Below, in pieces: positions 101-63,888 of a stretch of 64,000 nucleotides of DNA (positions are counted from its first letter, which is position 1; the number at the start of each line of letters is the position of its first letter). The stretch spans positions 96,001-160,000 of the forward strand of contig CAVXLD010000001.1 of assembly GCA_963762565.1 (NCBI GenBank), in the 5' to 3' direction. The position numbers and the translations under genes are program-made. Source of the stretch: an uncultured Verrucomicrobiae bacterium. Its GTDB lineage: Bacteria > Verrucomicrobiota > Verrucomicrobiia > Chthoniobacterales > JAFAMB01. Below the pieces are notes generated by a model that saw only the letters and a list, made by a program, of their open reading frames with translations, searched no databases and was not told the origin of the DNA.

Positions 101-346
101 GGAATTTCACCACAGAGGCACAGAGAACACAAAGAACAGATAATAAAATCCGCAGATTACGCAGATTACACAGATTTCGTTTTGAGCTTCGGATAGCGGC
201 CAAGTACTCAACGAAACGGCAGCATACCTGGACGACTTTTTTCCCTGCGGCTGGATTCAATCTTTAACGTAATCTGCGTAATCTGTGAAATCTGCGGATC
301 CTAATGTCTGTCTCTGTGTCCTCTGTGTCTCTGTGGTGAAATTTCC
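101..346. repeat. Nested inverted-repeat element: outer CACCACAGAG family, inner CGCAGATTA family
   Basis: Outer arms ~101-140 (GGAATTTCACCACAGAGGCACAGAG...) and ~307-346 (...CTCTGTGTCTCTGTGGTGAAATTTCC); inner arms ~147-177 and ~271-299; ~93-bp unique core. Confidence 0.9.
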
Positions 347-350
347 GAAT

Positions 351-2792
351 TTATTCCCGCAGGGCGATCATTGGATCGATCCGGATCGCGCGCCAAGCGG
401 GCACCACGCAGGCGAGAAAAGCGGCTAATCCCAATACCCCGATAGCCGTCAGAAGCGCAATCGGGTCGGTACCAGAAACACCGTAAAGCAAGCTTTGGAT
501 CAGATGCGTTAAAATCACTGAGCCGAGGATACCGGCCGCCAAACCGATCCCGACGATCATTAAACCCTGGCGAACCACTAAATTAAGGATGCTCCCAGAC
601 TCTGCGCCCAGAGCAATCCTGATTCCAATCTCCCTGGTACGCTGAGCAATCGAATACGCCAATACGCCGTATAAACCAACCGCAGCCAAGAGCAGCGCAA
701 GAACCGAAAACAGACTGACTAACACAACTGAAAGCCGCTGCGTAACTAACTCCTTGCTGAGCTGGCTTTCCATGGTTCTGATATTAAAGACAGGCAGACT
801 GGGATCGGACGATTGTACCGCTTCGCGGACGGCGGACACCAACCCTTGCGGATCACCCTTAGCCCGAAGTAAGACCGTCATCAGTAGCTCAGGCCTCTGC
901 GAAACCGGGAAATAAAGCTCCGCAAGTTTCGGCTCACTCGCTAAATCATCATGCCTTACGGTCCGTACCATTCCTACAATGGTGTATTTTACGGAGTTAG
1001 CTTTGTGGGCATCCTCAGAGAGCTGTTTACCAATTGGATCCTGACCGGGGAAACAGCGATTCGCCAGTTTTTCGTCAATGATAACGACCGGCGTTTTACC
1101 GACTCTGTCTTCGGCATCGAAAGTGCGGCCGCGGATCAATTGGATCTTAAGCGTTTTGAAATAATCGGGCGAGACAGATGCATATTCCGCCGTCGGTTCT
1201 TCTCCGAGTCGAGGTTCGGGCTGGCCGACAACGCCAAAGTCCATTGAGTAGTTGTTACCATTAAATGGCGCATTACTTCCCAGTGCTGATGCTTCCGTAC
1301 CCGGAACGCTTCGAATTCGTTGCAGGAGCGATTCATAAAAGGCTGCCATTTCGGTTTTCGTCGTTTGGTCAGCCTGGTTCTGATACTTCGAGCTCGACAG
1401 TTTAATCTCGACCATAAGCATGTTATGCGGATCAAAACCAAGCGGGACCTTTTGCAGCTGCTGGAAACTTTGGATGAGTAAGCTGGAAGCCACCAAAAGC
1501 AGACTAGCTAGAGCGACCTGCCCGATCACTAATAGTCCTTGGCTTCGTTGGCGCGCGGCGCCGGCAGTAGTGCCTCGACCGCCGGCAGCATCCAGAGTTT
1601 CCCTGAGGTTAACTCGAGACGTCTTCAAAGCGGGCCACAAACCAAATACCAGGCCGCTACCTAAAGTCACGATCGTGGTGAAGAGCAGAACCATCCCATT
1701 CAGATGAACGTGCTCGAATCGGCCAACATCATGAGGTGTTAATACCACAATCGCATCCAGGCTGGTCTGTGCCAATAGTAAGCCGAGAACTCCACCTAAT
1801 ATCGCCAGCACTACACTCTCGAATAGCAACTGATTAACCAAGCGGGCACGGCTTGCTCCCAAAGCCGCCCGGAGCGAAATCTCTCGTTGCCGAACAATCG
1901 CCCGGCCTAATAAGAGATTCGCCACATTGGCACAACCAATCAAGAGCACGAGACCAACGACAGCTAATAATAGATAAAGCGTCATTCGATATTGACCAAC
2001 CACGTCTTCCAGAAGAGGCGTGACTTTGGCTGAGATGTTAGAATTAGTGTCCGGGTACTGTAATTCCAGGTTTCGCGCGATAACTCGAAACTCGGCTCCC
2101 GCAGCTTCCCGCGAAACGCCCGGATTAAGCCGGCCTAGACAATTCAAACCCGGATGCTGACCCCGATCGGTCAAGGCCGCAGGCACTGGAAAATGGCCCA
2201 TGGTTACATAAACATCCATGTTTTCCGGATTCATGATCTGAGGTGGAGCGATGCCGATGACTTCGTAGCTCACGTCATTCAGCACTAGTGTACGGCCGAT
2301 GATCTTCGGATCCGCTGCGAAACGATTTCGCCAGAATTTATCGCTCAAAAGAATAACGCCAGCCTCTCCAGTGCGGTCGTCACTTTCAGCAAAGAATCGT
2401 CCGATTTCCGGTGTGACCCCAAGCACTCGAAAATAGCTCGCAGTGACAATTGCCCCGCTTACCCGCTCCGGATCGCCATTCCCAGTTAAGTTAAAATTAT
2501 CGCGGCGAAATACGGCGATTTCTTCAAAGGAATGCTGGTTCGTTCGCCAATCTAGATAGTCGGGATAATCGAGTGATATTTTAGGGTAGACCGGGCTGGT
2601 TTCCGAAATCGTGAATAACCTCCCCGGATCCGGGTACGGTAACGATTCCAGCAGAACCGCATCGACCAGACTAAAAATTGCGGTATTCGCCCCTATCGCG
2701 AGCCCCATGATCAAGATGGTAGTGATAGTGAATCCAGGCGATTTCAACAACAGCCGGATGGTATAACGGAGATGAGAAATCAGGGTTCGCAT
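351..2792 (-). CDS. ABC transporter permease, duplicated MacB/FtsX (ADOP-type), copy 1
   Basis: 813 aa; KSPGFT..GANTAIFS start, CANVANLLL-REISLRAALGA and GLYGVLAY-QRTREIGIRIALGA FtsX motifs, IDPMIALRE end. Confidence 0.95.
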   Translation of the reverse strand: MRTLISHLRYTIRLLLKSPGFTITTILIMGLAIGANTAIFSLVDAVLLESLPYPDPGRLFTISETSPVYPKISLDYPDYLDWRTNQHSFEEIAVFRRDNFNLTGNGDPERVSGAIVTASYFRVLGVTPEIGRFFAESDDRTGEAGVILLSDKFWRNRFAADPKIIGRTLVLNDVSYEVIGIAPPQIMNPENMDVYVTMGHFPVPAALTDRGQHPGLNCLGRLNPGVSREAAGAEFRVIARNLELQYPDTNSNISAKVTPLLEDVVGQYRMTLYLLLAVVGLVLLIGCANVANLLLGRAIVRQREISLRAALGASRARLVNQLLFESVVLAILGGVLGLLLAQTSLDAIVVLTPHDVGRFEHVHLNGMVLLFTTIVTLGSGLVFGLWPALKTSRVNLRETLDAAGGRGTTAGAARQRSQGLLVIGQVALASLLLVASSLLIQSFQQLQKVPLGFDPHNMLMVEIKLSSSKYQNQADQTTKTEMAAFYESLLQRIRSVPGTEASALGSNAPFNGNNYSMDFGVVGQPEPRLGEEPTAEYASVSPDYFKTLKIQLIRGRTFDAEDRVGKTPVVIIDEKLANRCFPGQDPIGKQLSEDAHKANSVKYTIVGMVRTVRHDDLASEPKLAELYFPVSQRPELLMTVLLRAKGDPQGLVSAVREAVQSSDPSLPVFNIRTMESQLSKELVTQRLSVVLVSLFSVLALLLAAVGLYGVLAYSIAQRTREIGIRIALGAESGSILNLVVRQGLMIVGIGLAAGILGSVILTHLIQSLLYGVSGTDPIALLTAIGVLGLAAFLACVVPAWRAIRIDPMIALRE

Positions 2793-2798
2793 GATAAG

Positions 2799-2919
2799 AA
2801 GGAGCTAGGAGCTAGAAGATGGCGTTGCATTTCCTGCGGGGCGTCTTCTCTAAAAACAGGTTATCCGACATTGGTTGCGATCTCATTTTTCAGTTGTAGT
2901 CGTGATCTACTAGCTCCTA
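2799..2919. repeat. GGAGCTA-family inverted-repeat element (short arms)
   Basis: AAGGAGCTAGGAGCTAGA at ~2799-2817 and TCTACTAGCTCCTA at ~2906-2919; the right arm contains the stop codon of permease 2. Confidence 0.75.
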
Positions 2920-5363
2920 CTCCCGTAGGGCCGTTATCGGGTCGATGCGGCTGGCTCGGAAGGCAGGGAGGAAACAAGCGATCAGCCCAGTAATGACAAG
3001 GACGACTGCGCTCGCTGCAATCGAAAGCGGATCCGTGGCCGAAACTCCATACAAGATGCCAGCGATTAGTCCGGATAGCGCCAAAGCGATCGCCAATCCG
3101 ATCAAAAGTCCGATGCCGACAATCCTTAAGCCCTGTCTAATGACTAACTGTAGTATGGCCGTGGATTGGGCGCCGAGAGCAATCCTGACCCCAATCTCGC
3201 GCTTCTTCTGACTAACCGAATAGGAAAGCACTCCGTATAAACCAATCGCGGCCAATAGCAAAGCGACGGCGGAAAACGCGCTGACTACAATTGACGCTAA
3301 CTGCCGGATGGCAAACGATCTGGCCACCACCTCTTCCAATCGTCCGATGTTCGAGACGGCCAGGTTCGGATCAAGATCCGCCACCACCTTGCGAAGCGGC
3401 TCGATCACCAAGCTCGGATTATTCTCGGTATGGAGCACTAATGTCGCAAAATTGATCCGATTCGGTTCAGTATTTTGGGCGTAGGGATAGTAACATTGGT
3501 ACGGTGTTGGTTGCGATTCAGGATTGTCATATTGAACAGTGCCAACGACGCCCACAATGGTGTAGAAGTTCCGCTTGAGTCCGACCCGATCATGAAAGTC
3601 GTAGAGCTGTTTTCCAAGCGGATCCTGATCGGGAAAGAATGCCTGGGCCACACTCTGGCTAATTATCACGACTTTCTCTTTTTCCGGGCCATCCTGGTTA
3701 GTAAAAGTTCTACCGCGAATCTGCGGAATGCCCATGCTCCGGAAGTAATCCGGCGAGATAAACTGGATTTGCCAAGCCGGAAGTTGGCTTTGGGGTGGCT
3801 CCCGGCGTCCCGAAATCCAGAAGCCGTCAAGGTTGCTGGCCGGCGAAGAGGGCATGAAGGGTAAGGCACTGTTCAGGCCGGCCGAGGTAACTCCGGGCAA
3901 CGTTTTTACCCGATCGAGCAATTTGTCAAAGAATTGGCGATACGCAGTCTGGTCCGAATAGTTGGCGTTGGTTAGATAGAGATCCGCAGCCAATCGGTTA
4001 ACCGCTTCGAATCCTAGCGGGGTGTGCTGCAATGCCTGGAAACTTCTGGCCATGAGACCGGCGCTGATTAACAGGATAACGGTAAGAGCGACCTGACCAG
4101 AGACGAGCACGGCTTGACCCAGATTACGAGCCCGGCCCGCCGTAACCCGCTCCCTTCTCGTTTGAGGGCTGACGCTAGATTGGTCCGAGAATTGACCAGA
4201 GCGGGGAACAATCCGGAAAATGCCGCAGTGACTAGAGTAATCAACAAGACAAAGATCAGAGCGCCGGTATCAAGCCGGACCTCCTGAAAACGTGCGAACT
4301 CATCCGGCGCGAGCGTTCTGATGACGTGAAGCGACCAAGCAGCAGCGGCCAGACCGACGGCGGCGCCGGCCAGAGTCAGGACCGAATTTTCGATAAGGAG
4401 TTGCGCGATCAGCCTTCTCCGATTTGCTCCCAGCGCAGCGCGCACACTCATTTCTCTTGCCCGTTCCTGCGCCCGAACGAGCAACAGTGTGGCTACATTC
4501 GCGCAGGTGATAACCAGCAGACACGCTACCGCCGCTTCCACCAGCCATAACGATCCGGAATAGCTGCCAATCACCGTATCGAGATAAGGAACCGCCCGGA
4601 TCCCGAATCCAATATCCTCAGGATATCGGCTTACGAGGTTCTGTTGGATGACCTCTAAATCGGCTTTGGCCGCTTCTAAGGTGGCGCCGTCTTTAAGGCG
4701 GCCAAAGCAAGCACAATCGTGGTTGAGCCGTTGGGTCATCTCGAGGGTCCCATAAAAACGGCTTTGATTTAGCGGGACATACACATCGATCCTAGCCGAC
4801 TCGCTGGCCACAGAAGGGGTCACGCCGATCACTTGAAGACTTCTCCCGTTTAACGACAAACTCGCGCCGACGACATTCGGATCGCCGTGGAACATCGTCC
4901 GCCAAAAATGTTCACTCACTATCACGACACCCGGCGCATCGGGCCGATCGTCGGCTACCTCTATCGGGCGACCAAACAGCATGGGACGTCCAAATAGCTG
5001 GAAAAATGTTCCCGAAACATAAGCGCCGCTGATTAACTCCGGGTTGCCACGTCCTGTCAGCGTAAAATCATCGTTGAGCGAGAGCGCCATTTCCTGGAAC
5101 GAATGTTGGCCGGCTTTGAGATCGACGTAATCAGGATAATCGAGCGGTAATCGCTCGAAGCTCCGAAAAGACTGGTATACCTGCACTAACTGTCCCGGAT
5201 GCGGGTACGGAAGCGGCTTCAACAGGACTGCTTCAATCACACTGTAGATAGCGGTATTCCCTCCAATCCCCAGTCCTAGAATCAAAATCGCAGTAATCAT
5301 GAATCCAGGCGATTTAACCAGTAGCCGGATTGTACGCCGGAGATGGGAAATTAGGCTTCGCAT
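2917..5363 (-). pseudogene. ADOP-type ABC permease, copy 2, split by a single-base frameshift
   Basis: ORFs 4068..5363 (N half) and 2917..4110 (C half) join into one ~815-aa permease (LKREG-ERVTAGRARNLGQAVLVSGQVAL) if one base is added near 4152-4156. Confidence 0.85.
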
Positions 5364-5370
5364 ACAGGTA

Positions 5371-5518
5371 GAGTTAGGAGGTAGAATCTAGGAGCTAGTG
5401 CGTCGCCGCGACTTCTAAATTCTTACTGTTGCTCTGTCGTTTATTCGTTTAAATTTAAGGGCATCTATTAGTCAGGTATTTTTCCTTCTAGATCCTAGAT
5501 TCTGGCTCCTAGCTCCTA
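5371..5518. repeat. GGAGCTA-family inverted-repeat element
   Basis: GAGTTAGGAGGTAGAATCTAGGAGCTAG (5371-5398) and CTAGATCCTAGATTCTGGCTCCTAGCTCCTA (~5488-5518, includes stop of permease 3). Confidence 0.9.
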
Positions 5519-7938: not shown

Positions 7939-8102
7939 AGGAGTTAGGAGCTAGAATCTAGGAGCTAGGAGGGAGACTCTTTTTCTGATTCGTGCGTTGC
8001 TCCAACGACTGGTTTTGTCAGCTGACTTATGCAGATTCGATTCAGTTTTGTTCGCGATATCGTCATCTCTTCTAGATCCTAGATTCTAGCTCCTCGCTCC
8101 TA
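7939..8102. repeat. GGAGCTA-family inverted-repeat element
   Basis: AGGAGTTAGGAGCTAGAATCTAGGAGCTAGGAG (7939-7971) and TTCTAGATCCTAGATTCTAGCTCCTCGCTCCTA (~8070-8102, includes stop of permease 4). Confidence 0.9.
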
Positions 8103-10544: not shown

Positions 10545-10551
10545 GACAAGC

Positions 10552-11061
10552 AGGAGCTAGGAGCTAGAATCTAGGAGCTAGAAGTTCGCTTCGGGGTTTT
10601 TGGATAGTGCAATCGAGGGACAGATTTCGTGCCGTCATTTAACATTCGTTGTGTAAGATTCGCGCTCATTTTGATGTCTCCTAGATCCTAGATTCTAGCT
10701 TCTAGCTTCTAGCTCTCTAGCTCCTAGCTCCTAGCTTCTAGCTCCTACAGCGACCAACAGCCGATAGCCAACGGGTAGGAGCCAGGTCTGCGCGCACGAG
10801 TGGAACTTCGATTGGCTGGGATGAACGACGTTCCCGCTCCATACGCTTTCCGGTTAAGGTTCATGCTGGATCTCCTATGCCTTTTTCCCTTGGCTACCGG
10901 CTGTTAGTCACTGGGAGTTGCCACAGCAAGGTAACGGGGATTCTTTCACAACAAGGCCACAAAGGCGCCAAGACTGAACAGGTTCAAAAAAAGGCTTTTT
11001 TCGAAATCCACTATCTGTCTCAGTCGTTTTGTCTCTGCGGCCTTTGCGACCTTGCTGTGAA
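10552..11061. repeat. Three adjacent inverted-repeat elements of different families
   Basis: GGAGCTA pair 10552-10584 / ~10678-10747 (right arm expanded); CAGCGACCAACAGCCGATAGCCAA pair 10748-10775 / 10887-10913; TTCACAACAAGG pair ~10945-10965 / 11041-11061. Confidence 0.8.
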
Positions 11062-11220
11062 CTATTCTGTCTCCTTGTTGCGTTCTAAAAATTCACTGAT
11101 CATGATCAGCACACAAAGTTCGCGAAGCTGGGTCCGCTCTTCCGAACTGAGGCCGTCATCGTTTCCCGCCGATTCTTCCTGCCCCATGACCAATGGGTTT
11201 ATTTCATGTAATGGCTTCAT
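11062..11220 (-). CDS. Small hypothetical protein (52 aa)
   Basis: MKPLHEINPLV...NKETE, co-oriented just downstream of the ATPase; no recognisable motif. Confidence 0.3.
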   Translation of the reverse strand: MKPLHEINPLVMGQEESAGNDDGLSSEERTQLRELCVLIMISEFLERNKETE

Positions 11221-11263: not shown

Positions 11264-12013
11264 TCATCCACCCACAACCCGAGGGGTAGGTTCTCCTTCG
11301 TTTTCGTTGTTCTCGGCCACGATCTGACCGTCGAAGAGATGCACGGTTCGGTCCGCATAACCGGCAAATCGTGGATCATGGGTTACCATACAAATGGTAG
11401 CGCCGCCCTGATGCAATTCGGATAGCAAATCCATTACGGCGTCACCGTTTTTGCTATCCAAGTTACCCGTTGGCTCGTCGGCCAGCAGGATCGATGGTGA
11501 ACCAACCAACGCTCGGGCTACCGCCACGCGCTGTTGTTGTCCACCACTCAGCTGATTCGGATAGTGCCGTTGCCGATGGCTCATCCCGACTCGATCCAAG
11601 GATTGCAGAACCCGCTGTTTACGTTCGCTCCTGGGCATCTCGCCGCGATAGGTCAATGGTAGTTCGACGTTCTCGTATACCGTCAAGTCACCGATCAGGT
11701 TGAAACTCTGAAAAATGAATCCGATTTCCCGGTTACGGATCCTGGCTCTCTCGGACAGCTTCAGTTGTTCAACTTGCCGCCCATTCAGCCGGTAGGCCCC
11801 TTCCGAAGGCGAGTCTAGCAGACCTAGAATCGATAGGAGCGTCGATTTGCCGCAACCGCTCTGGCCGGCGATCGCCACATATTCGCCCTTCAAAATCTCG
11901 AGATAGATACCGGCTAACGCATGGGTTTCAATCTCGTCAGTAAGAAAGACTTTCTTTATCGCGTCTAGGTGGATGAGGGGTTCTGGGTTCACGTTTGGCA
12001 GTTCGCTGTTCAC
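11264..12013 (-). CDS. ABC transporter ATP-binding protein (MacB/LolD-like)
   Basis: Walker A GQSGCGKS, signature LSGGQQQRVA, ILLADEPTGNLD, VTHD. Confidence 0.97.
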   Translation of the reverse strand: MNSELPNVNPEPLIHLDAIKKVFLTDEIETHALAGIYLEILKGEYVAIAGQSGCGKSTLLSILGLLDSPSEGAYRLNGRQVEQLKLSERARIRNREIGFIFQSFNLIGDLTVYENVELPLTYRGEMPRSERKQRVLQSLDRVGMSHRQRHYPNQLSGGQQQRVAVARALVGSPSILLADEPTGNLDSKNGDAVMDLLSELHQGGATICMVTHDPRFAGYADRTVHLFDGQIVAENNENEGEPTPRVVGG

Positions 12014-12319
12014 GGTTGAGGTTGGCGGTTAGCGGTTTGCAGTTGTCGGTTAGCGGTTTCAATCGTTCTCGTCCTCGCTCTCGTAATCGTCCTCGTCCTC
12101 GATTCGCTTTGGTTTCTGTTCACGGTGGGCGTTTTAGCGTGGTAGGCACGAAATAGTAATCGGTGCTCGTGTTTCGCGCTGGGTAGCCGGTTAGCGACCG
12201 TTGAACCACTTTCACTACACATGCGTGGTAACCAAAGTTTCGGATTCATTTGAAATTTTTTCGGAGTTTTATTTTTCCGTACCAATCACCAATCACTTCT
12301 CACCTCTCACGTTCCCTCA
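12010..12319. repeat. Stacked repeat arms (CGGTTAG, CTCGTC and CACCAAT families)
   Basis: GGTTGGCGGTTAGCGGTTTGCAG ~12020-12060; TTCTCGTCCTCG..GTCCTCGTCCTCGA ~12061-12102; ACCAATCACCAATCACTTCTCAC 12281-12319 ending at the permease 5 stop. Confidence 0.7.
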
Positions 12320-14743: not shown

Positions 14744-14753
14744 GGCGGGGGAA

Positions 14754-15042
14754 GTGATTAGTGATTAGTGATTGGTGGTGCTGCGCTCACGCCGATCGGC
14801 CGTTTTTTGCGTTCTCACGAAAAAAGCAACCTCACAGACCGGCAGCGAATACACTGGAAAGGGCGAATCGATTAGTCCTCTGGAGTCGTGGCGTTTCCAA
14901 AAGCTCTCACGATGCGCGATTTGTTTATTGAAAATTTTCATTTTGTTAGCTCCATCACGCTCACCAATCACCAATCACCAATCACCAATCACCAATCACC
15001 AATCACCAATCACCAATCACCAATCACCAATCACCAATCACC
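14754..15042. repeat. TCACCAA heptamer array (11 perfect copies) with an inverted partner arm
   Basis: (TCACCAA)11 at 14961-15037 plus TCACC including the MFP stop; partner GTGATTAGTGATTAGTGATTGGTG at 14754-14777. Confidence 0.95.
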
Positions 15043-16366
15043 TCAGTTGTATGCGTTCATGACTATCAAAGGCGCTGGTATCGGACAGAATCACGTGGTC
15101 ACCCGGCGTTAGGCCATTTAGGATTACAACTTTGGTGGCGGAACCACGACCCAACTGGACCTTAGTTCTGGTGGCGGTGACACCATCTGCACTCAACCGG
15201 AACAAACCGATAGTAGAATCATCCTGGCCGAAAGCGGGTCGACCGACGTAGATGGCATCAGCTAAACGTTCGAGTTCGATGGTTCCTTCCACACTCAGGT
15301 CGGGTCTAGCTCCTTTAGGTAGTTCGATCCCGTGAAAGGTAACATCGACGAGCACGGTCCCTTCGCTCACCGCCGGATCGATTCGAGCCACCGTACCGCT
15401 GACGATACTGCCGTTGCGCATATCAACTTGCGCGGTCTGCCCGATGGCAATGTCCCGGGCTTGAGTTTCCGGGATTTTGATTTGTGCTTTCAGCTTGGTG
15501 TTGTCCGCCACTCGGGCAAGGTTGGTGCCGGCAGAAACCCGCTGCCCGACCTCGACAGCGATTTGCTGGAGGACACCGTTCATTCCGGCTCGCACCTGTA
15601 GGGCATCGACCTGTCCATGGCGTAATTCGGCTTGGGCTTCGGCCTGTTCGAGATCCGTTTGGGCAACTGCCATTCGCGGCGCCATGGATCTCTTCGCGAA
15701 TTCGTAACGCTGTTTCTGTACCTCAAAATTCGCGGATAATTCCGTGGCTGCGATCTTCGCCTTCTGAAAGTCGAGAGTCGAAATCAGGCCGCCTTTCGAC
15801 AACCGTTCATCTGCCTCAAACTCGGCCTGAGCGGTGTCGCGATCGGCCTGAGCTTTGGTCAAGTTGGCCTGTTGCTCCAGCATTTCTCCTTCTAGCTCCG
15901 CTTGTAGCTGGGTCAGTTTCGCTTGAGCGCTCTTGGCTGCGGCATCCGCGTCCCTCGCTTCTTGCTCTAACTCGGCGCTGCTCAACTTCAATATCACGGA
16001 ATCCGCGGTTACTTCTGTTCCCGGCCAGATCACGATTTGCTCGACTCGGGCGTCGGTTCGGGCAGGGATCCAACGGACGTCTTCGGGAACTAGCGTTCCG
16101 ATTCCACGCACGTCGCGAATCAGCGGTCCGCGCGACACGGTATCAATCCAGACCGAGCTTCGGTCTACCGAGGGCAGAGCCGGTTCAAGCCGGGCAACAA
16201 AAATACTAACTCCGGTCACCACCGCTGCCGCCAGCAAAAGCAGCAACACATTTCTGCGCCATTTCTTTTGGCGGTAACCGATTCGCGGAATGTCCATCCG
16301 AGAACCGTCCGCCGGGACAGAGAAAACTGGTTCTACTTTCTTTTTTGGCAGCACGCTGAGCGTCAC
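15038..16366 (-). CDS. Efflux membrane-fusion protein (HlyD/MacA-like periplasmic adaptor)
   Basis: N-terminal TM, VRGIGTL lipoyl half, long coiled coil, IPETQARDI, GARPDLSVEG. Confidence 0.93.
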   Translation of the reverse strand: MTLSVLPKKKVEPVFSVPADGSRMDIPRIGYRQKKWRRNVLLLLLAAAVVTGVSIFVARLEPALPSVDRSSVWIDTVSRGPLIRDVRGIGTLVPEDVRWIPARTDARVEQIVIWPGTEVTADSVILKLSSAELEQEARDADAAAKSAQAKLTQLQAELEGEMLEQQANLTKAQADRDTAQAEFEADERLSKGGLISTLDFQKAKIAATELSANFEVQKQRYEFAKRSMAPRMAVAQTDLEQAEAQAELRHGQVDALQVRAGMNGVLQQIAVEVGQRVSAGTNLARVADNTKLKAQIKIPETQARDIAIGQTAQVDMRNGSIVSGTVARIDPAVSEGTVLVDVTFHGIELPKGARPDLSVEGTIELERLADAIYVGRPAFGQDDSTIGLFRLSADGVTATRTKVQLGRGSATKVVILNGLTPGDHVILSDTSAFDSHERIQLR

Positions 16367-16765: not shown

Positions 16766-16934
16766 GGAAGGGTGAGGGCAAAAGGGCGAAGGGGCGAGGT
16801 TTAAGTGGACTCAGTGGACGGAGTGCACGAAGTGTGCCGCGCCAAACGCCAAACGCCAAACGCCAAACGCCAAACGCCAAACGCCAAACGCCAAACGCCA
16901 AACGCCTTTCACCTTTCACTCTTCACCTTGCCTT
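16766..16934. repeat. Composite element with a (CGCCAAA)9 array
   Basis: (CGCCAAA)9 at 16840-16902; AGTGGACNN 9-mers 16803-16834; GAAGGGTGAGGGC arm ~16766-16794 versus CCTTTCACCTTTCAC arm ~16904-16934 that overlaps the kinase stop. Confidence 0.85.
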
Positions 16935-18311: not shown

Positions 18312-18651
18312 AATTTCACGCCAAGACGCAAAGACGCAAAGGTGATTCGTGATTCGTGATTAGTGATTAGTGATTGGTGATTGGTGGAGGCACTTGGTGG
18401 GGCGAGGCTCCCGAAAGAGTAAGAAGTTCTATCAGAGCTCCCGATGTTTCGCCGCTAAAGAGTTTGTTAGGCCTATTGACGCGCCGAGCCGGGGCCCAGC
18501 GATAGACCACGGCTCGGCGCCCTTAACGGCCTAGCATCGCGGGTCGGCGGGGTTAACCGCAAGGGCTTCGCTATCGCGATGGACCTTTCGGGAGCCTCGC
18601 CCCACCAATCACTTCTCACCAATCACCGATCACGTCTCGCCCTACCAATCA
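18312..18651. repeat. Nested element: GTGATTR arms around a GGGCGAGGCTCCCG-family REP-like unit
   Basis: GTGATT[CAG] run 18342-18387 and CACCAAT run ~18603-18651 (includes regulator stop); inner 24-bp IR 18394-18417 / 18585-18608; internal hairpin 18481-18520. Confidence 0.88.
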
Positions 18652-20064
18652 CAGCCCATATTGCTGCAACCGCCGGTAAAATGTGCTACGACTCAAACCG
18701 AGAGCTTCCGCAGCGCGTCGAGCATTACCACCGTACCGATTAAGCGCTTTCTTGATTAACAACTTCTCGATGTCCTCCAAGGTCATTTCATCGAGGCGCG
18801 ATGAATCAGACGGAGTTTGTCCTCCGATATCGGCCAAGCCGAGATCCGGAGGCCGGATCTGAGCACTGTCTGTCATCAGAACGGCGCGTTCTATGGTGTG
18901 ATCGAGTTCCCGCACGTTCCCCGGCCACCGATGATAGGTGAGAGCCTTCTCGGCAGCAGGGTCAATCCCGGTAATCCGCTTAGCGTACCGGCTAGCATGA
19001 CGGTCCAAGAAGTGTTGGGCCAACGGAACGATGTCTTCCGGCCGGTCGCGCAAAGGCGGAATCTGAATCTCGACTGTTCGCAGTCGGAAATAGAGGTCTC
19101 GCCTGAACCGGCCCGATTCAACCTCAGCCGGTAAATCGGAATTCGTCGCCGACAAAAGCCTGACACTCGCGCGCCGAGTTTTGGAAGAACCGAGCCGCTC
19201 AAACTCGCCGGTCTCAACCGTGCGCAAAAGTTTGGCCTGTTGCGAGAGTGGAATATTCCCGATCTCATCCAGAAATAAGGTCCCTCCGTCGGCGATCTCG
19301 AAACGTCCGGCCCGCTCACTCTTGGCGTCCGTAAAGGCTCCTTTCATGTGGCCGAACAGTTCGCTTTCAAACAGGTTCTCGTTCAGGCCTCCCATGTTGA
19401 CTGTCACAAAGGCCTTTTCAGCTCGCTGACTGGCGACATGAATCGCTCGCGCCACCACGCCCTTTCCCGTCCCGTTTTCGCCGGTGACCAAGACATTCGC
19501 ATCAGAAGGCGCAATTCGTTGGATCGTCTCGACGACGGCGCGCATTCCCGATGATTGGGCGATTAGTCCAGTGGTCGCTAACGCCGTTTTCCGACTGGGC
19601 ATCAGGCCGGCATCTCCGCGAAGGACCTGATTTTCCGACTCCAATCGCTCGCCGCGCAGCTCGGCAGCCGAAAAATCAAGCTGCGTGCGCACAATGGCCG
19701 AGACGCGCGAATTTTCCCAGGGCTTTTCAAAGAAGTCCCGAGCGCCGGTTCGCATGGCAGCAACCGCCAGATCGACCGTCGCCCACGCCGTCATGACTAC
19801 AATTGGTGGAGCGCCCTCGATTTTTTTGATCTGGGCGATAAGCTCGAGACCTTCCTGGCCGCCCGTCGTATCACGAGCGTAATTGAGGTCCAACAATATC
19901 AGCGAGACCTCGCTATTTTCGAGAGTCTCCATCACCTCTTTAGGAGAAGTCGCCAACGCAGTCTCGTACCCTTCCTTCGCGAGAAGTATTCGGAGCGCCT
20001 CCCGGACAGCGGCTTGGTCATCGGCGATCAGGATGCGGGGTTTTTTTGCGGGTTCTCGGTTCAC
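18649..20064 (-). CDS. Sigma-54-dependent response regulator (NtrC family)
   Basis: REC (ILIADD, LLDLN), AAA+ GENGTGK, GAFTDA, LFLDEIG, WPGNVREL, Fis HTH; start moved to GTG 20064 because the upstream codons are repeat DNA. Confidence 0.95.
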   Translation of the reverse strand: MNREPAKKPRILIADDQAAVREALRILLAKEGYETALATSPKEVMETLENSEVSLILLDLNYARDTTGGQEGLELIAQIKKIEGAPPIVVMTAWATVDLAVAAMRTGARDFFEKPWENSRVSAIVRTQLDFSAAELRGERLESENQVLRGDAGLMPSRKTALATTGLIAQSSGMRAVVETIQRIAPSDANVLVTGENGTGKGVVARAIHVASQRAEKAFVTVNMGGLNENLFESELFGHMKGAFTDAKSERAGRFEIADGGTLFLDEIGNIPLSQQAKLLRTVETGEFERLGSSKTRRASVRLLSATNSDLPAEVESGRFRRDLYFRLRTVEIQIPPLRDRPEDIVPLAQHFLDRHASRYAKRITGIDPAAEKALTYHRWPGNVRELDHTIERAVLMTDSAQIRPPDLGLADIGGQTPSDSSRLDEMTLEDIEKLLIKKALNRYGGNARRAAEALGLSRSTFYRRLQQYGL

Positions 20065-20360
20065 GGTTCGCAGTTCACGGTTGGCGGTTGCGGTTGGAGT
20101 TGTTCCTCGTCCTCGTTCACGTCGTCGTCCTCGTCCTCGAAAGGTTTGCACCGGGACCCAGCGGCAACATCCGCTCTATGTTGATACAGGAAATAACAAT
20201 CATCGAAAAAGCCTTACAAGATACGCGTGACCAGTAGAAAGGCCCATTCGCGAAGAATTAGCAACAACTTCTCATTGGTTGCGTGAGGATAACCGAGGGG
20301 ACAACCGCAAACTGCAAGCCGCTAACCTTGACACCCTCGAGGACGAGGACGAGAACGATT
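20051..20360. repeat. Interleaved CGGTT-family and CTCGTC-family inverted arms
   Basis: GGTTCACGGTTCGCAGTTCACGGTTGGCGGTT ~20051-20095 / AACCGCAAACTGCAAGCCGCTAACC 20303-20327; GTCGTCCTCGTCCTCGA ~20102-20140 / TCGAGGACGAGGACGAGAACGATT ~20336-20360. Confidence 0.75.
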
Positions 20361-20430: not shown

Positions 20431-20793
20431 ATGGAAGTGATTAATCGTAACGAGGTCGCGGCATTCGTCGGACCGGATGGCGGCATTATCCGGGAGCTTG
20501 CTGCTAGCCGGAATTCATCGGCCCGAAAACAGAGTTTGGCCGAGGCTACGATTCCGGTCGGAGGAACGGTTACCGAACATTTTCACAAAACCACAGAAGA
20601 GTTTTACTACATCCTCAGCGGAACCGGCCTGATGAAGATCGAGGACGAACTGAGAGAAGTGGGTCCGGGAGACACGGTTATTATCATTCCCGGTAAACGC
20701 CACAAGATCACAAACAACGGCCAAGTTCCGTTAGTTCTGCTGGCGTGCTGTTCACCTGAATGGACTGCAGAAGATCAGGTGCTGGTGGACTGA
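20431..20793 (+). CDS. Cupin domain protein
   Basis: EHFHKTTEEFYYILSGTG and GDTVIIIPGKRHKI cupin motifs. Confidence 0.92.
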   Translation: MEVINRNEVAAFVGPDGGIIRELAASRNSSARKQSLAEATIPVGGTVTEHFHKTTEEFYYILSGTGLMKIEDELREVGPGDTVIIIPGKRHKITNNGQVPLVLLACCSPEWTAEDQVLVD

Positions 20794-20801
20794 TTAAAAC
20801 C

Positions 20802-21306: not shown

Positions 21307-21310
21307 TGTT

Positions 21311-22672
<1,362 letters not shown>

Positions 22673-22881
22673 GAGAAACGGGGAGCAGATTTTATCCCAA
22701 ACTGTTTAAGCAATCGGTGAGTTATTAGAAAAGGATAAAAAAGAACGAACGCAGCAAATGATGGGCAACTGTGCATTATTCTAAGCGAGGCGCTCCGGAA
22801 ACTGGGTAACAAAGCCGCCTAGAAACGGTCTGGCTTAAGCAGAAAGCGATTTTCCCCTCGTCGTGCGCGCACCCCGGTTTT

Positions 22882-39857: not shown

Positions 39858-39864
39858 TTTAGAA

Positions 39865-41768: not shown

Positions 41769-41812
41769 GAGGCAGCTTAGCTAACGCGTTTTTTTGGACT
41801 GGTCAACGGCAG

Positions 41813-42003
41813 AGGAGCTAGGAGCTAGAATCTAGGAGCTAGGAGGGTACGGACAAAAGTGGACGGAGTGGACTGAGTAGACGCAGTGGACAGAGTGGAA
41901 CCGGCCACCGGCCGATGCGCCTGATTGCGTCCACTAAGTCCACACTGTCCCCGCCGATACGCCGACACGCCCTCCTAGCTCCTGGATTCTAGCTCCTGGC
42001 TCC
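41813..42003. repeat. Nested element: GGAGCTA arms outside, AGTGGACNN arms inside
   Basis: Outer 41813-41847 / 41970-42003; inner ~41858-41899 / 41929-41950. Confidence 0.88.
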
Positions 42004-43276: not shown

Positions 43277-43311
43277 GGTGAGAAGTGAGAGGTGATTAGT
43301 GGGACGTGACT

Positions 43312-43529
43312 GGTAGGGCGAAAATCTCGGCGCGGCCTACGGGAACCACCTTCCTGGCTGAACCGCGCCGGATTTGAGCCATGCGTGCGCGGTGTATTGC
43401 CCACGACGTTATTGCTCACCGTCGGATCGAAGCCAGCGAGGTGGTCCATCCACGGCGCGGCTCAAATCCGGCGCGCACGGTCCCAGCGCAGGTGGCCCAT
43501 CCTCAACGCGCCGAGATTTTCGCCCTACC
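43312..43529. mobile_element. MITE/REP-like element, GTAGGGCGAAAATCTCGG family, copy 2
   Basis: IR 43312-43334 / 43507-43529 with the same inner IR as 24858-25084; flanked by a GTGAGAA run (43277-43309) and a solo GGGAGCCTCGCCCTACC arm (~43544-43564). Confidence 0.8.
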
Positions 43530-43611
43530 GGAGTCTCGGCCATTTCGGGAGCCTCGCCCTACCATCCTGGCCCTTGCGGGCAATCTTGGCCGGAGTATCG
43601 TCCCAAGCTCA

Positions 43612-47561: not shown

Positions 47562-48260
47562 GTCTCGCGCCAGGTATAAGCCACGAGAACTGAATGCGTC
47601 TGGCAAATACTCGACGCTGAGACGTGCTCGCCGAAAAAGGTCCTTCCACTGATCGTGGTCTAACAAAAGCAACTCATGCCTTTCGACCGCATACCTGACA
47701 TCTATTCCATCTGCGAACAAATGATGCCCGATCAATATCGCGACATCCCCCTTCCTATCGCTCGTCATCAGGCGGCAAACCTTTCGCCGGTCGTCTGCTC
47801 CAGTAGCGATGTTGGCCTCGCCGGCACGCCACGCGTTAGGCTCGATAAAAGGCTCGATAAAGATGGCTCCTCCCGGGGCCAAATGGGCCTTGAAACAACC
47901 CAGGGCTGATAGAATCGCTTCAGCCGTTAGCAGGTGCCCAATCGCGCTGAACAGACAGATCAGAAGGTCGAACTTGCGCCCCAGCTCGAATCGCTGCATA
48001 TCGGCGACTTGAAAATTTCCATCGGGCCGTTTTTCGCTCGCGATCCTCACAAGAGCGGGCTCAAGATCGATACCGGCTACTTCGTATTCGGGCAAGAAGC
48101 GGAGGTGTTCGCCTGTGCCGCATGCGATGTCTAAGATTGTGCGTCCCTCGGGAACAAATCGACGAAAAAGCTCCCGTAACCGATCGGTTTCTCCCCGGTA
48201 ATCCTTCTTAGAGTAAACTAGGTAATAATATTCGGCGGAAGCAGAATACATAGCCTGCAT
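47544..48260 (-). CDS. Class I SAM methyltransferase (TylM1/DesVI-like)
   Basis: LDIACGTG, ADMQRFELGRKFDLLICLFSAIGHL, HLAPGG. Confidence 0.88.
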   Translation of the reverse strand: MQAMYSASAEYYYLVYSKKDYRGETDRLRELFRRFVPEGRTILDIACGTGEHLRFLPEYEVAGIDLEPALVRIASEKRPDGNFQVADMQRFELGRKFDLLICLFSAIGHLLTAEAILSALGCFKAHLAPGGAIFIEPFIEPNAWRAGEANIATGADDRRKVCRLMTSDRKGDVAILIGHHLFADGIDVRYAVERHELLLLDHDQWKDLFRRARLSVEYLPDAFSSRGLYLARDSGISS

Positions 48261-48446
48261 GGTAACAAATGCGCAGGCATTTGTGTACCATGCAGGCTAC
48301 CGCAGAATGATCCGGCAAAGCCGGACAATTCTGCTGAAATCTACAGAGAGAGATTCCGACAGCCGACTTTTCCGGCGTAGCCGGAGAAGTCGGCTCATAG
48401 CCTGCGCAGCCGAAAAATGCCTGCGCATTTTTCGGCTGCGCAGGCT
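48251..48446. repeat. Four-hairpin intergenic element
   Basis: Hairpins 48251-48299, 48302-48334, 48361-48395 and 48399-48446; a related hairpin lies at 51079-51113. Confidence 0.8.
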
Positions 48447-50471: not shown

Positions 50472-50713
50472 AAAGGAGCTAGGAGCCAGAATCTAGGATC
50501 TAGGAGAAAACGTGTAGGCGGGTTGGCGTATCGACGTTTCGGCGTGCGCTGGACGCCGCGATCGAATGGGATCCGCCTTCGCCAAGCCTTCGGCGCGACG
50601 GGCTTTATGGGACCTGTAGGACCTACCTGATTGACGCATACCTCCGGTGAGTCTAATCGGCTTTGCCACACCCACACGCGCGTCTCTCCTGGCTCCTGGA
50701 TTCTGGCTCCTTT
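50472..50713. repeat. GGAGCTA-family element with mixed internal repeat units
   Basis: Arms 50472-50507 / 50685-50713; internal GGCGTAT-like 8-mers and a TCCGCCTTCG..TTCGGCGCGAC unit. Confidence 0.85.
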
Positions 50714-53593: not shown

Positions 53594-53724
53594 AGCGCCC
53601 CGTGGAGCGTGCCTCGCTTGCGAGTCCGACGAACCACCCATTGCGTATTTCCTCTTTCCGCGGGCTGTCAGGCGAAAATATCTCAGAGTCGGCCTTGCAA
53701 GCGAGGCACGCTCCACGGGGCGCT
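53594..53724. repeat. GTGGAGCGTGCCTCGCTTGCG-family IR element
   Basis: 31-bp arms 53594-53624 / 53694-53724 (one mismatch) touching the upstream stop; other copies at 59761-59789 (solo) and 62616-62794. Confidence 0.88.
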
Positions 53725-57157: not shown

Positions 57158-57296
57158 TGGCGGACTCTGCGATATTTCAACGAGCATCCGTACGCCGGTT
57201 CTTGCGGCAAGGACCAAGACTCTGGCACGAGAAAATCTTCCGTCCAGTACTTTGGTAGGGGGGAACGCCGGGAACGAGCTAGAACGCCGGGAACGC

Positions 57297-57509
57297 TGGT
57301 AGGGCGAGGCTCCCGAACCTACACAAAGGGTTAGCAAAGGCTAAACTCCGAGGCGAATCGCTGATACGCTGTACCGACAAACGCGCCGAGCCGTGGCCCA
57401 GCGATAGATCACGGCTCGGCGCGCTTCATGGCCTATGAACACCGTTCGCCAGGTGACGTACATGGCCCTTCGCGATAGCGATGGATTCTTCGGGAGCCTC
57501 GCCCCACCA
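57297..57509. repeat. GGGCGAGGCTCCCG-family REP-like element
   Basis: Arms 57297-57317 / 57489-57509; internal hairpin 57383-57422 nearly identical to 18481-18520. Confidence 0.88.
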
Positions 57510-57531
57510 ATGATTGTAGCCTAAATCCTCC

Positions 57532-59559: not shown

Positions 59560-59677
59560 GGGAGGGATCGCGTCCTCGCGATCCTTCTTTAGCGAAGCCC
59601 GCGACAGAGCAGATCACGCGTTTAGCCAGGTTCACCAGGCAGACCTGGTCGCGGCGCGCGGGGACGCGCGCCCTCCC
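59560..59677. repeat. GGGAGGG-family IR element, copy 2
   Basis: GGGAGGGATCGCGTCCTCGCGATCC / TCGCGGCGCGCGGGGACGCGCGCCCTCCC. Confidence 0.8.
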
Positions 59678-59789
59678 TGCTCTGTGTCACCAATTCAGCG
59701 GATTTCACACGCAATAGCGCCGACGGAATACGGGTATGAACCGCGATTTCCCCTTGCTTACCACGGCCTCGCAAGCGAGGCACGCTCCA

Positions 59790-60683: not shown

Positions 60684-60956
60684 GCGTTTGGCGTTTGGCG
60701 TTTGGCGTTTTGGCGTTTTGGCGTTTGGCGTTTGGCGTTGGGCGTTTGGCGTTGGGCGTTGGGCGTTGGGCGTTTGGCGTTGGGCGTTGGGCGTTGGGCG
60801 GTTCACCGTTCGCTGGTTGGCTTTTCGTGCTCGTCCTCGTGCTCGACGAAACCCGGGCCACCTCGAAAAGAGATCCATCATCCCTGTTCTCCTTTTGCTG
60901 GCCATCAATCGCTTTCAGGCGTCGAACGCGCTCTCGAGGACGAGGACGAGAACGAT
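60684..60956. repeat. GGCGTT[TG] heptamer array (~16 units) plus a CTCGTC-family IR pair
   Basis: Array ~60684-60800 (reverse complement of the CGCCAAA array); arms ~60821-60849 / 60933-60956. Confidence 0.9.
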
Positions 60957-61664: not shown

Positions 61665-61749
61665 CCGGAAATAGCCGATAGCCAATAGCCAATAGCCGAC
61701 AGTCCTGGTGTGGGCGAGGTCACGCCGCCTCCGTTGAACTCCTCTCTCG

Positions 61750-62544: not shown

Positions 62545-62557
62545 CGGTACGTAATTT

Positions 62558-62851
62558 ATCCGCAGATTGCGCAGATTACGCAGATTTTTTTTCGGTGGGG
62601 CGAGGCCATAAACCGTGGAGCGTGCCTCGCTTGCGAAGCCGTGGTGAGCAACGCTGACGATGTGGCAGCGCATCCGCCGGCTGCGCTCTTGCGTGTGAAG
62701 TTGCAGGAGGCGGGAGATAGAGCGCTGACCGAAATAGGGCCTGCTTCAAAATGTTGCTTTGTTTACCACGGCCTCGCAAGCGAGGCGCGCTCCAAGGCTT
62801 CGCCTCGCCCTACCCGAAAAAAAATCTGCATAATCCCCGTAATCTGTGGAT
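62558..62851. repeat. Triple-nested IR element between divergent thyA and folE2
   Basis: CGCAGATT arms plus GGGCGAGGC arms 62558-62606 / 62802-62851; inner GTGGAGCGTGCC arms ~62616-62650 / ~62761-62794. Confidence 0.88.
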
Positions 62852-62879
62852 ATTTGGCCTGACAAAACGCGAGTATAGA

Positions 62880-63671
62880 ATGGAACCGAAAGCAACGACA
62901 GCTCTGGTCGATACGCAAAGCCTTCCGGATCACCGGGAAGTTAGAATCGATCGTGTCGGTGTTACCGATGTGCGTTTCCCGATTGTCGTCCGAGACAAGG
63001 CGCACTCTTCTCAACACACCATTGCCAGGGTGGCCTTGACCGTTGACTTACCACATCACTTCAAGGGCACCCATATGAGCCGCTTCATAGAGGTGCTTAA
63101 CGAGCATGGCTCGGTGGTACACGTCGATAATATCAAAGAAATTTTACACCACCTCCAACAGCGCCTTGATGCTCAACAAGCGCACGTCGAATTCGAGTTT
63201 CCGTTTTTTATGGAAAAAAGCGCTCCGGTAACGGGATCGGTCGGCCTGATGGATTATAATGTGCGCTTTACGGCGACCGCCTCCCGCAAGGAGTCCGATT
63301 TACTCTTAACCGTAATCGTCCCAGTAACGACGCTTTGCCCCTGTTCCAAAGCCATCAGCAAATATGGAGCGCACAATCAACGCGGGCAGGTCACCTTCAG
63401 CATACGGTCTAGCCGGCTGGTTTGGATCGAGGAGCTGATTCAGTTGGTGGAAAGCTCGGCCAGCGCGGAACTATACAGCTTGTTAAAACGTCCCGATGAA
63501 AAGGCACTGACCGAACGAGCCTACGAGCACCCCGTATTCGTCGAAGATCTGGTCCGCAATATCGCCATCAAAGCCAACGCCGATTCAAGGATCATTTGGT
63601 ATCGGATCGAAGCGGAAAACTACGAATCGATCCACAATCATAACGCTTATGCGATGATCGAGAAGGGGTAG
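62880..63671 (+). CDS. folE2: GTP cyclohydrolase I type B
   Basis: KGTHMSRF, TTLCPCSK, GAHNQR, LKRPDE, ESIHNHNA; ATG 62880. Confidence 0.95.
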   Translation: MEPKATTALVDTQSLPDHREVRIDRVGVTDVRFPIVVRDKAHSSQHTIARVALTVDLPHHFKGTHMSRFIEVLNEHGSVVHVDNIKEILHHLQQRLDAQQAHVEFEFPFFMEKSAPVTGSVGLMDYNVRFTATASRKESDLLLTVIVPVTTLCPCSKAISKYGAHNQRGQVTFSIRSSRLVWIEELIQLVESSASAELYSLLKRPDEKALTERAYEHPVFVEDLVRNIAIKANADSRIIWYRIEAENYESIHNHNAYAMIEKG

Positions 63672-63711
63672 GCAGTATTTCCTTCTCGGATTGAATGCGG
63701 GCCCATCGCCC

Positions 63712-63888
63712 GGAAGGGATCGGATCCTCGCGATCAGGAAGGGATCGGATCCTCGCGATCAGTTTGGTGTCGGACCGAGGATGTGATGTAATCTCGGACG
63801 AAATTACGCCTTGGGCTTTGGCATGTCCCCGCGGCGCGCGGGGATCCTCCGTCGCTAAAGCTATGGCGGACAGGCAGCGCGCTCTCCC
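63712..63888. repeat. GGGAGGG-family element with a duplicated left arm and an insertion in the right arm
   Basis: 25-bp direct repeat 63712-63736 / 63737-63761; right arm interrupted by ~31 bp at 63845-63875. Confidence 0.78.

Follow-up and report, generated by a model that had tools for sequence, protein, structure and literature searches.

Inverted-repeat hairpins between the genes of a soil Verrucomicrobiae bacterium as probable ends of three kinds of small gene cassettes

We describe a stretch of 64,000 nucleotides (nt), hereafter the window, from an uncultured Verrucomicrobiae bacterium (assembly GCA_963762565.1, contig CAVXLD010000001.1, positions 96,001 to 160,000), in which gaps between genes are repeatedly filled by elements consisting of an arm, a core, and an inverted copy of the arm. 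Small gene cassettes probably have these arms as their inverted ends, and units without a gene (arm, core, arm) are probably non-autonomous copies of the cassettes, much as REPINs (doublets of repetitive extragenic palindromic, or REP, sequences) are for the REP-associated tyrosine transposases (RAYTs). Three gene families make up the cassettes, and each goes with its own class of arm: arms of tandem 6- or 7-mers and the AGTGGACNN arms with genes for four-helix-bundle proteins (PF05635), arms of tandem 8- to 10-mers with GxxExxY genes (PF13366), and palindromic, REP-like arms with Y1 transposase genes. The window corresponds to G000:C1:96001-160000 of a 6.1-Mb genome (G000) that is 93.7% complete; the relatives compared are G001-G005 and G012, the window being syntenic in G001-G005, and the datasets containing matching sequence are nearly all soil metagenomes. 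A GxxExxY cassette and a Y1 cassette lie in the window itself (scores of the boxes are from a matrix built on comEC genes of other genomes only):

20793..21315, forward strand: complete GxxExxY cassette, with 42-nt inverted CACAGAG-type arms (20793-20834 and 21274-21315) flanking the gene
20853..20877, no strand: dyad box AACA-N11-TGTT before the GxxExxY gene, score 16
20895..21272, forward strand: GxxExxY (PDDEXK_3) gene, 125 amino acids (PF13366, E 9e-42; TIGR04256)
22876..23566, forward strand: Y1-transposase cassette with 73-nt REP-like inverted arms
22983..23007, no strand: dyad box before the Y1 gene, score 21
23014..23463, forward strand: Y1_Tnp gene, IS200/RAYT-like (PF01797, E 1.6e-21)

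The arm pairs far exceed chance and have a fixed polarity. An earlier note on this DNA had counted more than 25 elements from more than 10 arm families, which agrees with the 29 strict pairs of 13 arm groups obtained from de novo seeds, besides solo arms and a few families that the seeds missed. Exact 14-mer inverted pairs 30 to 700 nt apart occur in 20 bins of the window, as against 0 to 2 bins per dinucleotide shuffle (n = 20), and two nested elements, at 62556..62852 and 39864..40133, fold with z values of -12.3 and -10.7. Genome-wide, 1,844 pairs of 33 groups stand in left-right order and 53 in the opposite order; as the left arm is defined from the commoner order, the scarcity of the opposite order is the result. 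These counts are lower bounds because the seeds miss at least the CGGTTAG, AGTGGACNN, and GGAGTGT families.

The association of arms with genes is seen at several levels. Among the 14 PF13366, 8 PF05635, and 12 PF01797 matches in G000, an inverted stem surrounds 11/11 of the scored GxxExxY genes at a score of at least 16, and 6/8 four-helix-bundle genes and 7/7 short Y1 genes at a score of at least 13. When named genomes of many phyla and a sample of the phylum were scored, with contig-end loci and duplicates removed, stems of at least 15 were found around 71 of 103 GxxExxY genes and 18 of 28 four-helix-bundle genes, their periods being mostly 8 to 10 and 7, whereas 300 random windows drawn from these loci yielded no case above the threshold. 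Each arm family named in the earlier note has a partner protein clade among the loci of G000, G002-G005, and G012: GGAGCTA, TCACCAA, CGCCAAA, AAGCAGT, TAGCCAA, CGGTTAG, GAGGAC, and AGTGGACNN (the last beside the gene on its upstream side only) go with four-helix-bundle clades, CACAGAG and CGCAGATTA with GxxExxY clades, and the REP-like arms with Y1 clades. Placed on both protein trees, where 22/33 and 24/36 rows could be labelled (one locus, L243, being mislabelled from an outer nested arm), the arm labels require 7 changes, the minimum, compared with at least 12 and at least 13 in 300 shuffles, and sister clades carry related arm words. This shows co-descent of arm and gene, not yet recognition of one by the product of the other.

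A forward test is provided by GGGAATC, the heptamer known from Xanthomonas. At 24 metagenome loci it forms inverted arms 410 to 440 nt apart, and at 13 of these a four-helix-bundle gene lies inside the arms (one locus is an exact duplicate and one gene is confirmed by TIGR02436); no common cargo was seen in the open reading frames (ORFs) of 7 of the 11 loci that lack such a match. Further, remnants of cognate genes lie within cognate arms at other loci of G000, e.g., C13:1378, C14:123033, C5:122463, and C10:281632. Such internally deleted copies, which retain the ends of the cognate gene, indicate that whole cassettes were copied. Broken cassette genes are frequent. In one of them, at G000:C3:44185-44911, a four-helix-bundle gene is split by an element of ~230 nt that has a conserved interior and ~40 copies in the genome, resembling a miniature inverted-repeat transposable element (MITE). 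All three gene families are under purifying selection, with dN/dS between 0.03 and 0.21 in 23 of 24 gene pairs (one was not computable). Since dS is mostly near 1, the unlike cores of different species need no special mutation process. Clustering of enclosed ORFs, in the portion examined, gave only the three gene families, DUF559 and GIY-YIG not having been searched as families; the other clusters consist of spurious repeat ORFs and of host genes caught between neighboring elements. One candidate of the latter kind, the ORF at 25979-26392 between GGAGCTA arms, was rejected as cargo, as it is a resident gene found in relatives too.

The GxxExxY protein is predicted to adopt the fold of a PD-(D/E)XK nuclease (predicted local distance difference test score 92.6), and fold searches return generic matches to this fold only, among them lambda exonuclease, Cas4, and Hjc (Foldseek E 2.5e-3 at best; highest Z 7.7, root-mean-square deviation 3.0 over 91 aligned residues). 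The residues D69, E79, K81, Q93, and Y97, each conserved at 96-100% among 140 homologues, form a D-ExK-QxxxY pattern, which we take to be a RecB-type signature. The function of GxxExxY is given as unknown in a published table (PMC3424549, the part compared). Among 9 candidates from a search limited to close relatives, no phage copy of the window gene was found. The four-helix-bundle proteins match the solved structures 2rld and 2gsc, each with five chains per entry, and the one protein that matched the Avd model NF033474 did so below its cut-off (E 5e-11, 42.8 bits, cut-off 80). For the Y1 protein of locus L034, NF047646 is above its cut-off. Long Y1 proteins with a C-terminal extension (G000:C1:531665, C5:482843, C12:565110, C3:501538, and C1:1159781) have short terminal repeats of the GGGGTCA/C type, as the passages compared describe for TIRYTs (PMC6006769). 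In the phylum, GxxExxY genes are present in 58 and four-helix-bundle genes in 85 of 121 genomes.

Elements make up ~4.7% of the G000 genome. The idea that they fill most intergenic gaps is true of the window in that 22 of 33 larger gaps chosen by eye have a stem score of at least 15; genome-wide, a seeded pair occupies 1,241 of 2,894 gaps of at least 100 nt and 92 of 1,845 shorter ones; pairs are seen in 44% of tandem, 48% of convergent, and 35% of divergent gaps. Nesting is concentric, 62% of 386 nests being symmetric within 10 nt, and it is directional, with 6/7-mer arms outside REP-like arms in 138 cases and REP-like arms outside in 28. Nested, stacked, and crossed elements all occur as previously described, the one crossed pair of the window being that at 25705-25936. 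Not every arm is paired, since several arrays (16840-16906, 60684-60800, and 61670-61699) are solo. The long heptamer arrays at 60684-60800 and 16840-16906 yield spurious ORFs of a Leu-Ala-Phe-Gly-Val-Trp-Arg repeat, which could end up in protein databases. Cores, described before as unique, are so mostly in the periodic-arm families, where most lack a homologue elsewhere in G000; in two REP-like families 143/170 and 169/225 have one. Their structure is weak (mean z -0.6 to -1.6). A segment of ~63 nt common to cores of several heptamer families (G000:C1:1485424 and six others) is probably one more nested family missed by the seeds. Direct repeats of 3 to 8 nt flanking 466, 160, and 522 outermost elements were not above control, though old copies could have lost target duplications. 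With neither target duplication nor, for most periodic-arm cores, a homologue elsewhere, the elements do not qualify as classical insertion sequences (IS) or MITEs with a DDE transposase; the separate ~230-nt family mentioned above is the exception that looks MITE-like. The other elements of the window, none of which is assigned a strand, are as follows:

103..343: gene-less nest with CACAGAG outer and CGCAGATTA inner arms, both of GxxExxY type (repeat scan, seeded pairs)
2799..2923: GGAGCTA pair whose right arm is degenerate; in G002, G005, and G003 the gap holds elements of TAGCCAA or CGCAAA type
5366..5518: GGAGCTA pair of four-helix-bundle type (seeded pair)
7939..8101: GGAGCTA pair; a CACAGAG element in the matching gap of G002 and G005
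10551..10771: GGAGCTA pair with expanded right arm, then a solo TAGCCAA arm (repeat scans)
10942..11064 (approximate ends): pair of CACAAAG-type 9-mers (direct reading)
11995..12310: stacked unpaired arms, namely a CGGTTAG-type array, GAGGAC, and TCACCAA (tandem scan, reading)
14753..15044: GTGATTG/TCACCAA pair, right arm of 11.7 units (tandem scan, seeds)
16785..16906: solo arms GGCGAAA, AGTGGACNN, and CGCCAAA, the last with 9.6 units (tandem scan, reading)
18318..18649: nest of a solo ACGCAAAG arm, a GTGATTG pair, and an inner REP-like pair; the inner family differs in G002 and G003
20051..20360: CGGTTAG-type arm and GAGGAC pair (scans, reading, seeds)
24833..25084: nested REP-like pairs of two families whose arms flank the Y1 gene at C7:542247 (seeds)
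25705..25936: crossed AAGCAGT and GGAGCTA pairs (reading, seeds)
26400..26464: solo GTGAGAA-type and GGAGCTA arms (gap comparison)
27181..27265 (approximate ends): CGGTTAG-type pair (direct reading)
30247..30553: GGCGAAA arm and REP-like pair (seeds)
37814..37936: REP-like pair of the family flanking the Y1 gene L330 in G012 (seeds, locus arms)
39864..40133: nest of GGAGCTA outer and GAGGAC inner arms; four different fillings in G002-G005
41812..42003: nest of GGAGCTA outer and AGTGGACNN inner arms; arms fused without a core in G005, a 500-nt core in G002
43276..43564: solo heptamer arm and nested REP-like pairs (seeds)
48257..48446: REP-like doublet; in G002 and G004 collapsed, with only a few bases left
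50473..50711: GGAGCTA-type pair with inner arms (scan, reading)
53594..53724: REP-like pair of the family flanking the Y1 gene L331 in G004; G001 lacks the gap
57261..57511: REP-like pair with central hairpin (scan, seeds)
59560..59789: REP-like pair and solo REP-like arm (seeds)
60684..60956: solo GCGTTTG array of 16.4 units and GAGGAC arms (tandem scan)
61670..61699: solo TAGCCAA arm (tandem scan)
62556..62852: triple nest of CGCAGATTA outer arms and two inner REP-like pairs (scan, folding)
63712..63888: tandem REP-like arms, a decayed element (scan, reading)

A common layout with exchange at fixed gaps, as had been proposed, is borne out by comparison with close relatives, where different families occupy matching gaps. 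In 54 comparisons of window gaps with G002-G005, taken where the G000 gap is seeded, the filling was the same in 4, overlapping in 17, and wholly different in 24, and none was detected in 9. At 62556-62852, G000 has three layers, G004 two, and G002, G003, and G005 only the outer pair around a core of ~40 nt. The short fillings that relatives have at 48257-48446 retain palindrome remnants and look like collapse, not like ancestral empty sites. In most families the two arms within an element are more alike than arms of different elements. Cassette genes for the most part remain at their loci, where they can be replaced: at one site a TCACCAA cassette and an AATCAGT cassette substitute for each other, genes and arms together, and at another a four-helix-bundle cassette alternates with a Y1 cassette. 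Inversion is likewise common, the gene being flipped in some genomes at 7 of 19 cassette-gene loci common to relatives, while the matched host genes around them keep one orientation per contig in G002-G005. The window GxxExxY cassette occupies the same site in G004 and G005, is inverted in G002, and is replaced by other elements in G003 and G012; the Y1 cassette is inverted in G002 and G005 and absent in G003. A near-identical strain lacks the Y1 cassette: in a contig from run X5, ~98.5% identical on both flanks, 149 other letters replace window positions 22743-23582. Two of the matching records bear on this site; the joints seen in this comparison derive largely from other repeat copies and were left unused. 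Two genes of the relatives are missing in G000 next to these cassettes, one of 287 amino acids before the GxxExxY site (window 20793-20895) and one of ~483 amino acids after the Y1 site (window 23566-23633), and both losses stop at element arms.

What the three gene families share in this bacterial family, apart from the same gaps and concentric nesting, is a box upstream. The dyad AACA-N11-TGTT was recovered from the upstream regions of all three, and in G000 it also precedes comEC, comM (YifB), DUF2851, type IV pilin, and recQ genes, often touching the start codon (G000:C10:399289, C1:903756, C11:64582, C1:421150, and C1:768947). Across the bacterial family, scores of at least 10 are reached at comEC in 16/16, DUF2851 in 15/15, comM in 12/15, and radC in 6/17, against a background, among 4,754 G000 genes, of 4.2% at this score and 1.5% at 13 or more. 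A matrix built from comEC of 15 other genomes, with symmetry not imposed, gave the same dyad, and the use of this comEC-only matrix in the reverse direction avoids circularity: at a score of at least 12 it finds the box at 16 of 35 cassette genes (6/11 GxxExxY, 2/8 four-helix-bundle, and 8/16 Y1), compared with 0.9% in the background and 0.7% in shuffled upstream sequences, and the latter figure also disposes of mere AT richness as the explanation. Shuffling of matrix columns gives 5 to 13 matches versus 48 real ones, 20 of which are training sites. Control by the SOS response (LexA regulon) was rejected, as the box scores below 2 at lexA and recA; the G000 lexA gene has a dyad of its own, TGTTC-N4-GAACA, presumably the Verrucomicrobia LexA box. 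The genes comEC, comM, and radC mark competence regulons, and the dyad delineates a candidate, so far unnamed, uptake regulon in soil Verrucomicrobiota. Its sharing by cassette and uptake genes appears to be new. ComM promotes the integration of heterologous transforming DNA, according to the passages compared (PMC6158740). The box is also near a Rep3 initiator gene and a TrwB-like coupling-protein gene (G000:C1:487385-490213), which belong to an integrated element directly downstream of comF, and it adjoins two short related ORFs (92 and 82 amino acids) without a Pfam match at G000:C3:365032 and C1:903815.

These observations lead us to a model of REPIN-like elements with two types of partner that are not known as transposases, which as a whole we hold to be somewhat more likely than not. 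When single-stranded DNA is folded into a long hairpin, each protein would recognize the arm word that is its own; the Y1 and GxxExxY proteins would cut or join, and the four-helix-bundle pentamer would bind, protect, and depend on host recombination. Gene-less units, which turn over fast and of which new ones are seen to land in the middle of older ones, would be mobilized in trans. The shared box would turn on the cassette genes during DNA uptake, when single-stranded DNA is inside the cell and the incoming DNA would include that of kin with other hairpins between homologous genes; the box suggests that the hairpins are carried in with environmental DNA. Action timed to uptake would account for same-site swapping, nesting, and inversion. 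To the competence step taken alone we give somewhat less than an even chance. A single mechanism for all arms, as once proposed, is not supported, there being three unrelated protein families in which each clade has its own arm word.

Several points weigh against the model. Mobilization by the cassette proteins, including arm binding and activity, is what we infer from the genomic patterns, and the four-helix-bundle pentamer is without a known catalytic site or chemistry. Agreement of arm labels with trees is also expected from mere linkage of gene and arm, and many tips are orthologues of one locus. Matches to cassette proteins are found in only 6 of 1,190 cores, 2 of them weak. No intact cognate gene is present in G000 for the GGAGCTA (69 elements), ATGACAA (75), GGCGAAA (67), and GCGTTTG (30) families; three of the four have one in relatives, and none was found there for ATGACAA among 30 of the 57 listed matches (30 loci per gene family were taken from G002-G005 and G012, out of 57, 43, and 30 matches listed). 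The window Y1 gene has an in-frame stop at codon 3 relative to the G002 copy, leaving a frame open from 23038. As for the box, 19 of 35 cassette genes lack it, among them 6/8 of the four-helix-bundle type, and so do dprA (0/16) and nearly all comF genes (1/19 with box); dprA and comF may lie inside operons. It seems to be lineage-limited: outside the bacterial family, 4/77 and 0/28 GxxExxY genes reach a score of 13, and in family f27 it is seen at 0/15 comEC and 1/30 GxxExxY genes. The GxxExxY cassettes of f27 (L464-L488) lack a separate promoter region, starting within a few bases of the stop codon of a host gene.

Much of the above might be expected if gene and arms merely co-descended and the proteins moved nothing, with units arising by deletion, slippage, arm-to-arm copying, and homologous recombination and accumulating at tolerant sites. 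Such passive dynamics would suit the arm expansions of up to 16 units, the collapsed, core-less hairpins of relatives, the greater likeness of arms within than between elements in most cases, the persistence of families in G000 without a cognate gene, and a protein lacking a known catalytic site. What they leave unexplained is that copies have reached hundreds of unlinked gaps and keep one polarity there (1,844 versus 53), that gene remnants are found at new loci, and that the same gene-arm pairing recurs across phyla, together with selection on the genes; we regard them as an unlikely explanation. Alternatively, the hairpins could serve a domesticated host function, being DNA marks, akin to very long uptake sequences, which the cassette proteins, as part of the uptake programme, would read, for instance to recognize, protect, or trim kin DNA, their spread being a side effect. 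The box common to comEC, comM, and radC, the stable loci under strong purifying selection, and the description of RAYTs as housekeeping-like in the passages compared (PMC5581495) are in line with this. However, the presence of over 30 families that turn over quickly from one sister species to another, the frequency of broken genes, and the absence of the box outside the bacterial family speak against it, and it appears unlikely as well.

The elements might also act at the level of RNA, like the intervening sequence (IVS) of 23S rRNA; the stem would be excised from transcripts by RNase III so that insertion is harmless, and spread would pass through RNA, the Avd-like four-helix-bundle protein aiding a reverse transcriptase (RT). 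The IVS with an S23p gene indeed has terminal inverted repeats cut by RNase III, in the passages compared (PMC4990558), and PF05635 resembles Avd (PMC10053308, likewise in part), the NF033474 match being below cut-off; moreover, 121 of 342 heptamer arms start 0 to 10 nt past a stop codon, and RT genes are present in G000. Yet G.U mismatches on the sense strand are in no clear excess over A.C mismatches (184:170 in heptamer, 211:199 in REP-like, and 76:54 in 8- to 10-mer arms), elements occupy 226 of 637 large divergent gaps, the best G000 RT is of the group II intron type, and cassette inversion is a DNA event. The equal mismatch counts and the filled divergent gaps favor a DNA-level process, and transmission through RNA strikes us as very improbable.

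REP/RAYT systems and heptamer repeats had been named as partial analogues, rightly in both cases. The palindromic-arm families are members of the known REP/RAYT/TIRYT kind, as represented in the passages compared (PMC3116915, PMC6006769, and PMC3733652), and the periodic-arm families work like REPINs but lie outside REPIN/RAYT, as they have non-palindromic arms and partners other than HUH proteins. Extragenic, over-represented hairpin doublets are found with all arm classes, and a vertical, low-copy, conserved partner gene with all three gene families; short palindromes as arms, and a resident HUH-Y1 gene flanked by arms, are confined to the REP-like families. In the passages compared on REPIN/RAYT (Bertels and Rainey 2011, PMC3116915; Quentin et al. 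2018, PMC6006769), inverted doublets with a poorly conserved spacer form hairpins in hundreds of extragenic copies, and a single resident gene lies between arms of its type, as is the case here; class 3 TnpA-Y1 with atypical arms resembles the window Y1 gene (PMC6006769). In the main text of Bertels 2017, tandem inverted repeats beside RAYTs were looked for and not found. Unlike in those accounts, the periodic arms are tandem 6- to 10-mers with a PD-(D/E)XK nuclease and an Avd-like bundle as partners, a single genome holds over 30 families in concentric nests, and there is a shared uptake-gene box. TIRtrons and TIRYTs (Di Nocera et al. 2013, PMC3733652, passages compared) likewise have Y1 genes in terminal inverted repeats that are also dispersed, and REP dimers inside longer palindromes, but with tyrosine transposases only; periodic arms, GxxExxY genes, and four-helix-bundle genes are absent from those passages. 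The Rfam family Acido-Lenti-1 (RF01687) has a match at window 23515-23560 that exceeds the gathering score and falls on the right arm of the Y1 cassette. In the part of its source compared, this family is listed as a candidate RNA (PMC2864571); it may instead represent a REP-like end.

Among heptamer repeats, the cyanobacterial short tandemly repeated repetitive sequences are, we assume, similar arrays. The Xanthomonas GGGAATC and Nostoc GGGGA(C/T)T repeats occur between genes in arrays of some four units, many of which pair up in convergent inverted orientation with the G-rich strand just past a stop codon, and have been read as G-quadruplex motifs; the passages compared name no partner gene (Rehm et al. 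2015, PMC4692102), in contrast to the four-helix-bundle gene enclosed at 13/24 loci here. The 23S rRNA IVS, in the part compared (PMC4990558), shares with our elements horizontal spread and a PF05635 gene within terminal inverted repeats, while the elements here lie between protein genes and have periodic arms and hundreds of gene-less copies; an Rfam search of the window found no rRNA match. Avd, the accessory protein of diversity-generating retroelements, has a homologous four-helix-bundle fold (PMC10053308, part compared), the one matching protein here scoring below the Avd cut-off, and the RT loci of G000 are not at four-helix-bundle loci. None of the three outcomes that the earlier note named as refuting its reading was seen: the elements differ between relatives, enclose genes, and, in the periodic-arm families, constitute the ends of genes that are not those of known IS. 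In the literature, from which subscription journals were outside coverage, no paper was found that connects periodic arms with GxxExxY or with PF05635; such co-localizations may be listed in the supplements of bioRxiv 10.64898/2026.10.21.760802.

Both GxxExxY and four-helix-bundle proteins form large families without an assigned function, and bacterial heptamer repeats are without an accepted origin. The periodic-arm families stand a fair chance of representing a new class of mobilizer. The pairing of word and clade permits a direct test with matched and mismatched protein-arm pairs, and it makes available a naturally occurring set of small proteins that would differ in the DNA word they recognize. 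The shared box is relevant to the question of when RAYT-type genes are expressed and why they are retained, and it gives DUF2851 a functional lead. As a broader and more tentative conjecture, there could be a cross-phylum class of REPIN-like hairpins moved by two proteins not known as transposases, the RecB-type nuclease GxxExxY and the Avd-like pentamer, whose clades would each read a different word of 6 to 10 bases. In this lineage these proteins and the Y1 transposases would have come independently under a DNA-uptake regulator and would act as single-stranded DNA enters the cell, and the Xanthomonas and cyanobacterial heptamers would be empty copies.

Lastly, the region 351-14743 of the window holds five or six ABC/ADOP-type permease genes (MacB_PCD and FtsX) in tandem, with a hairpin element between each, and their copy number differs in relatives.

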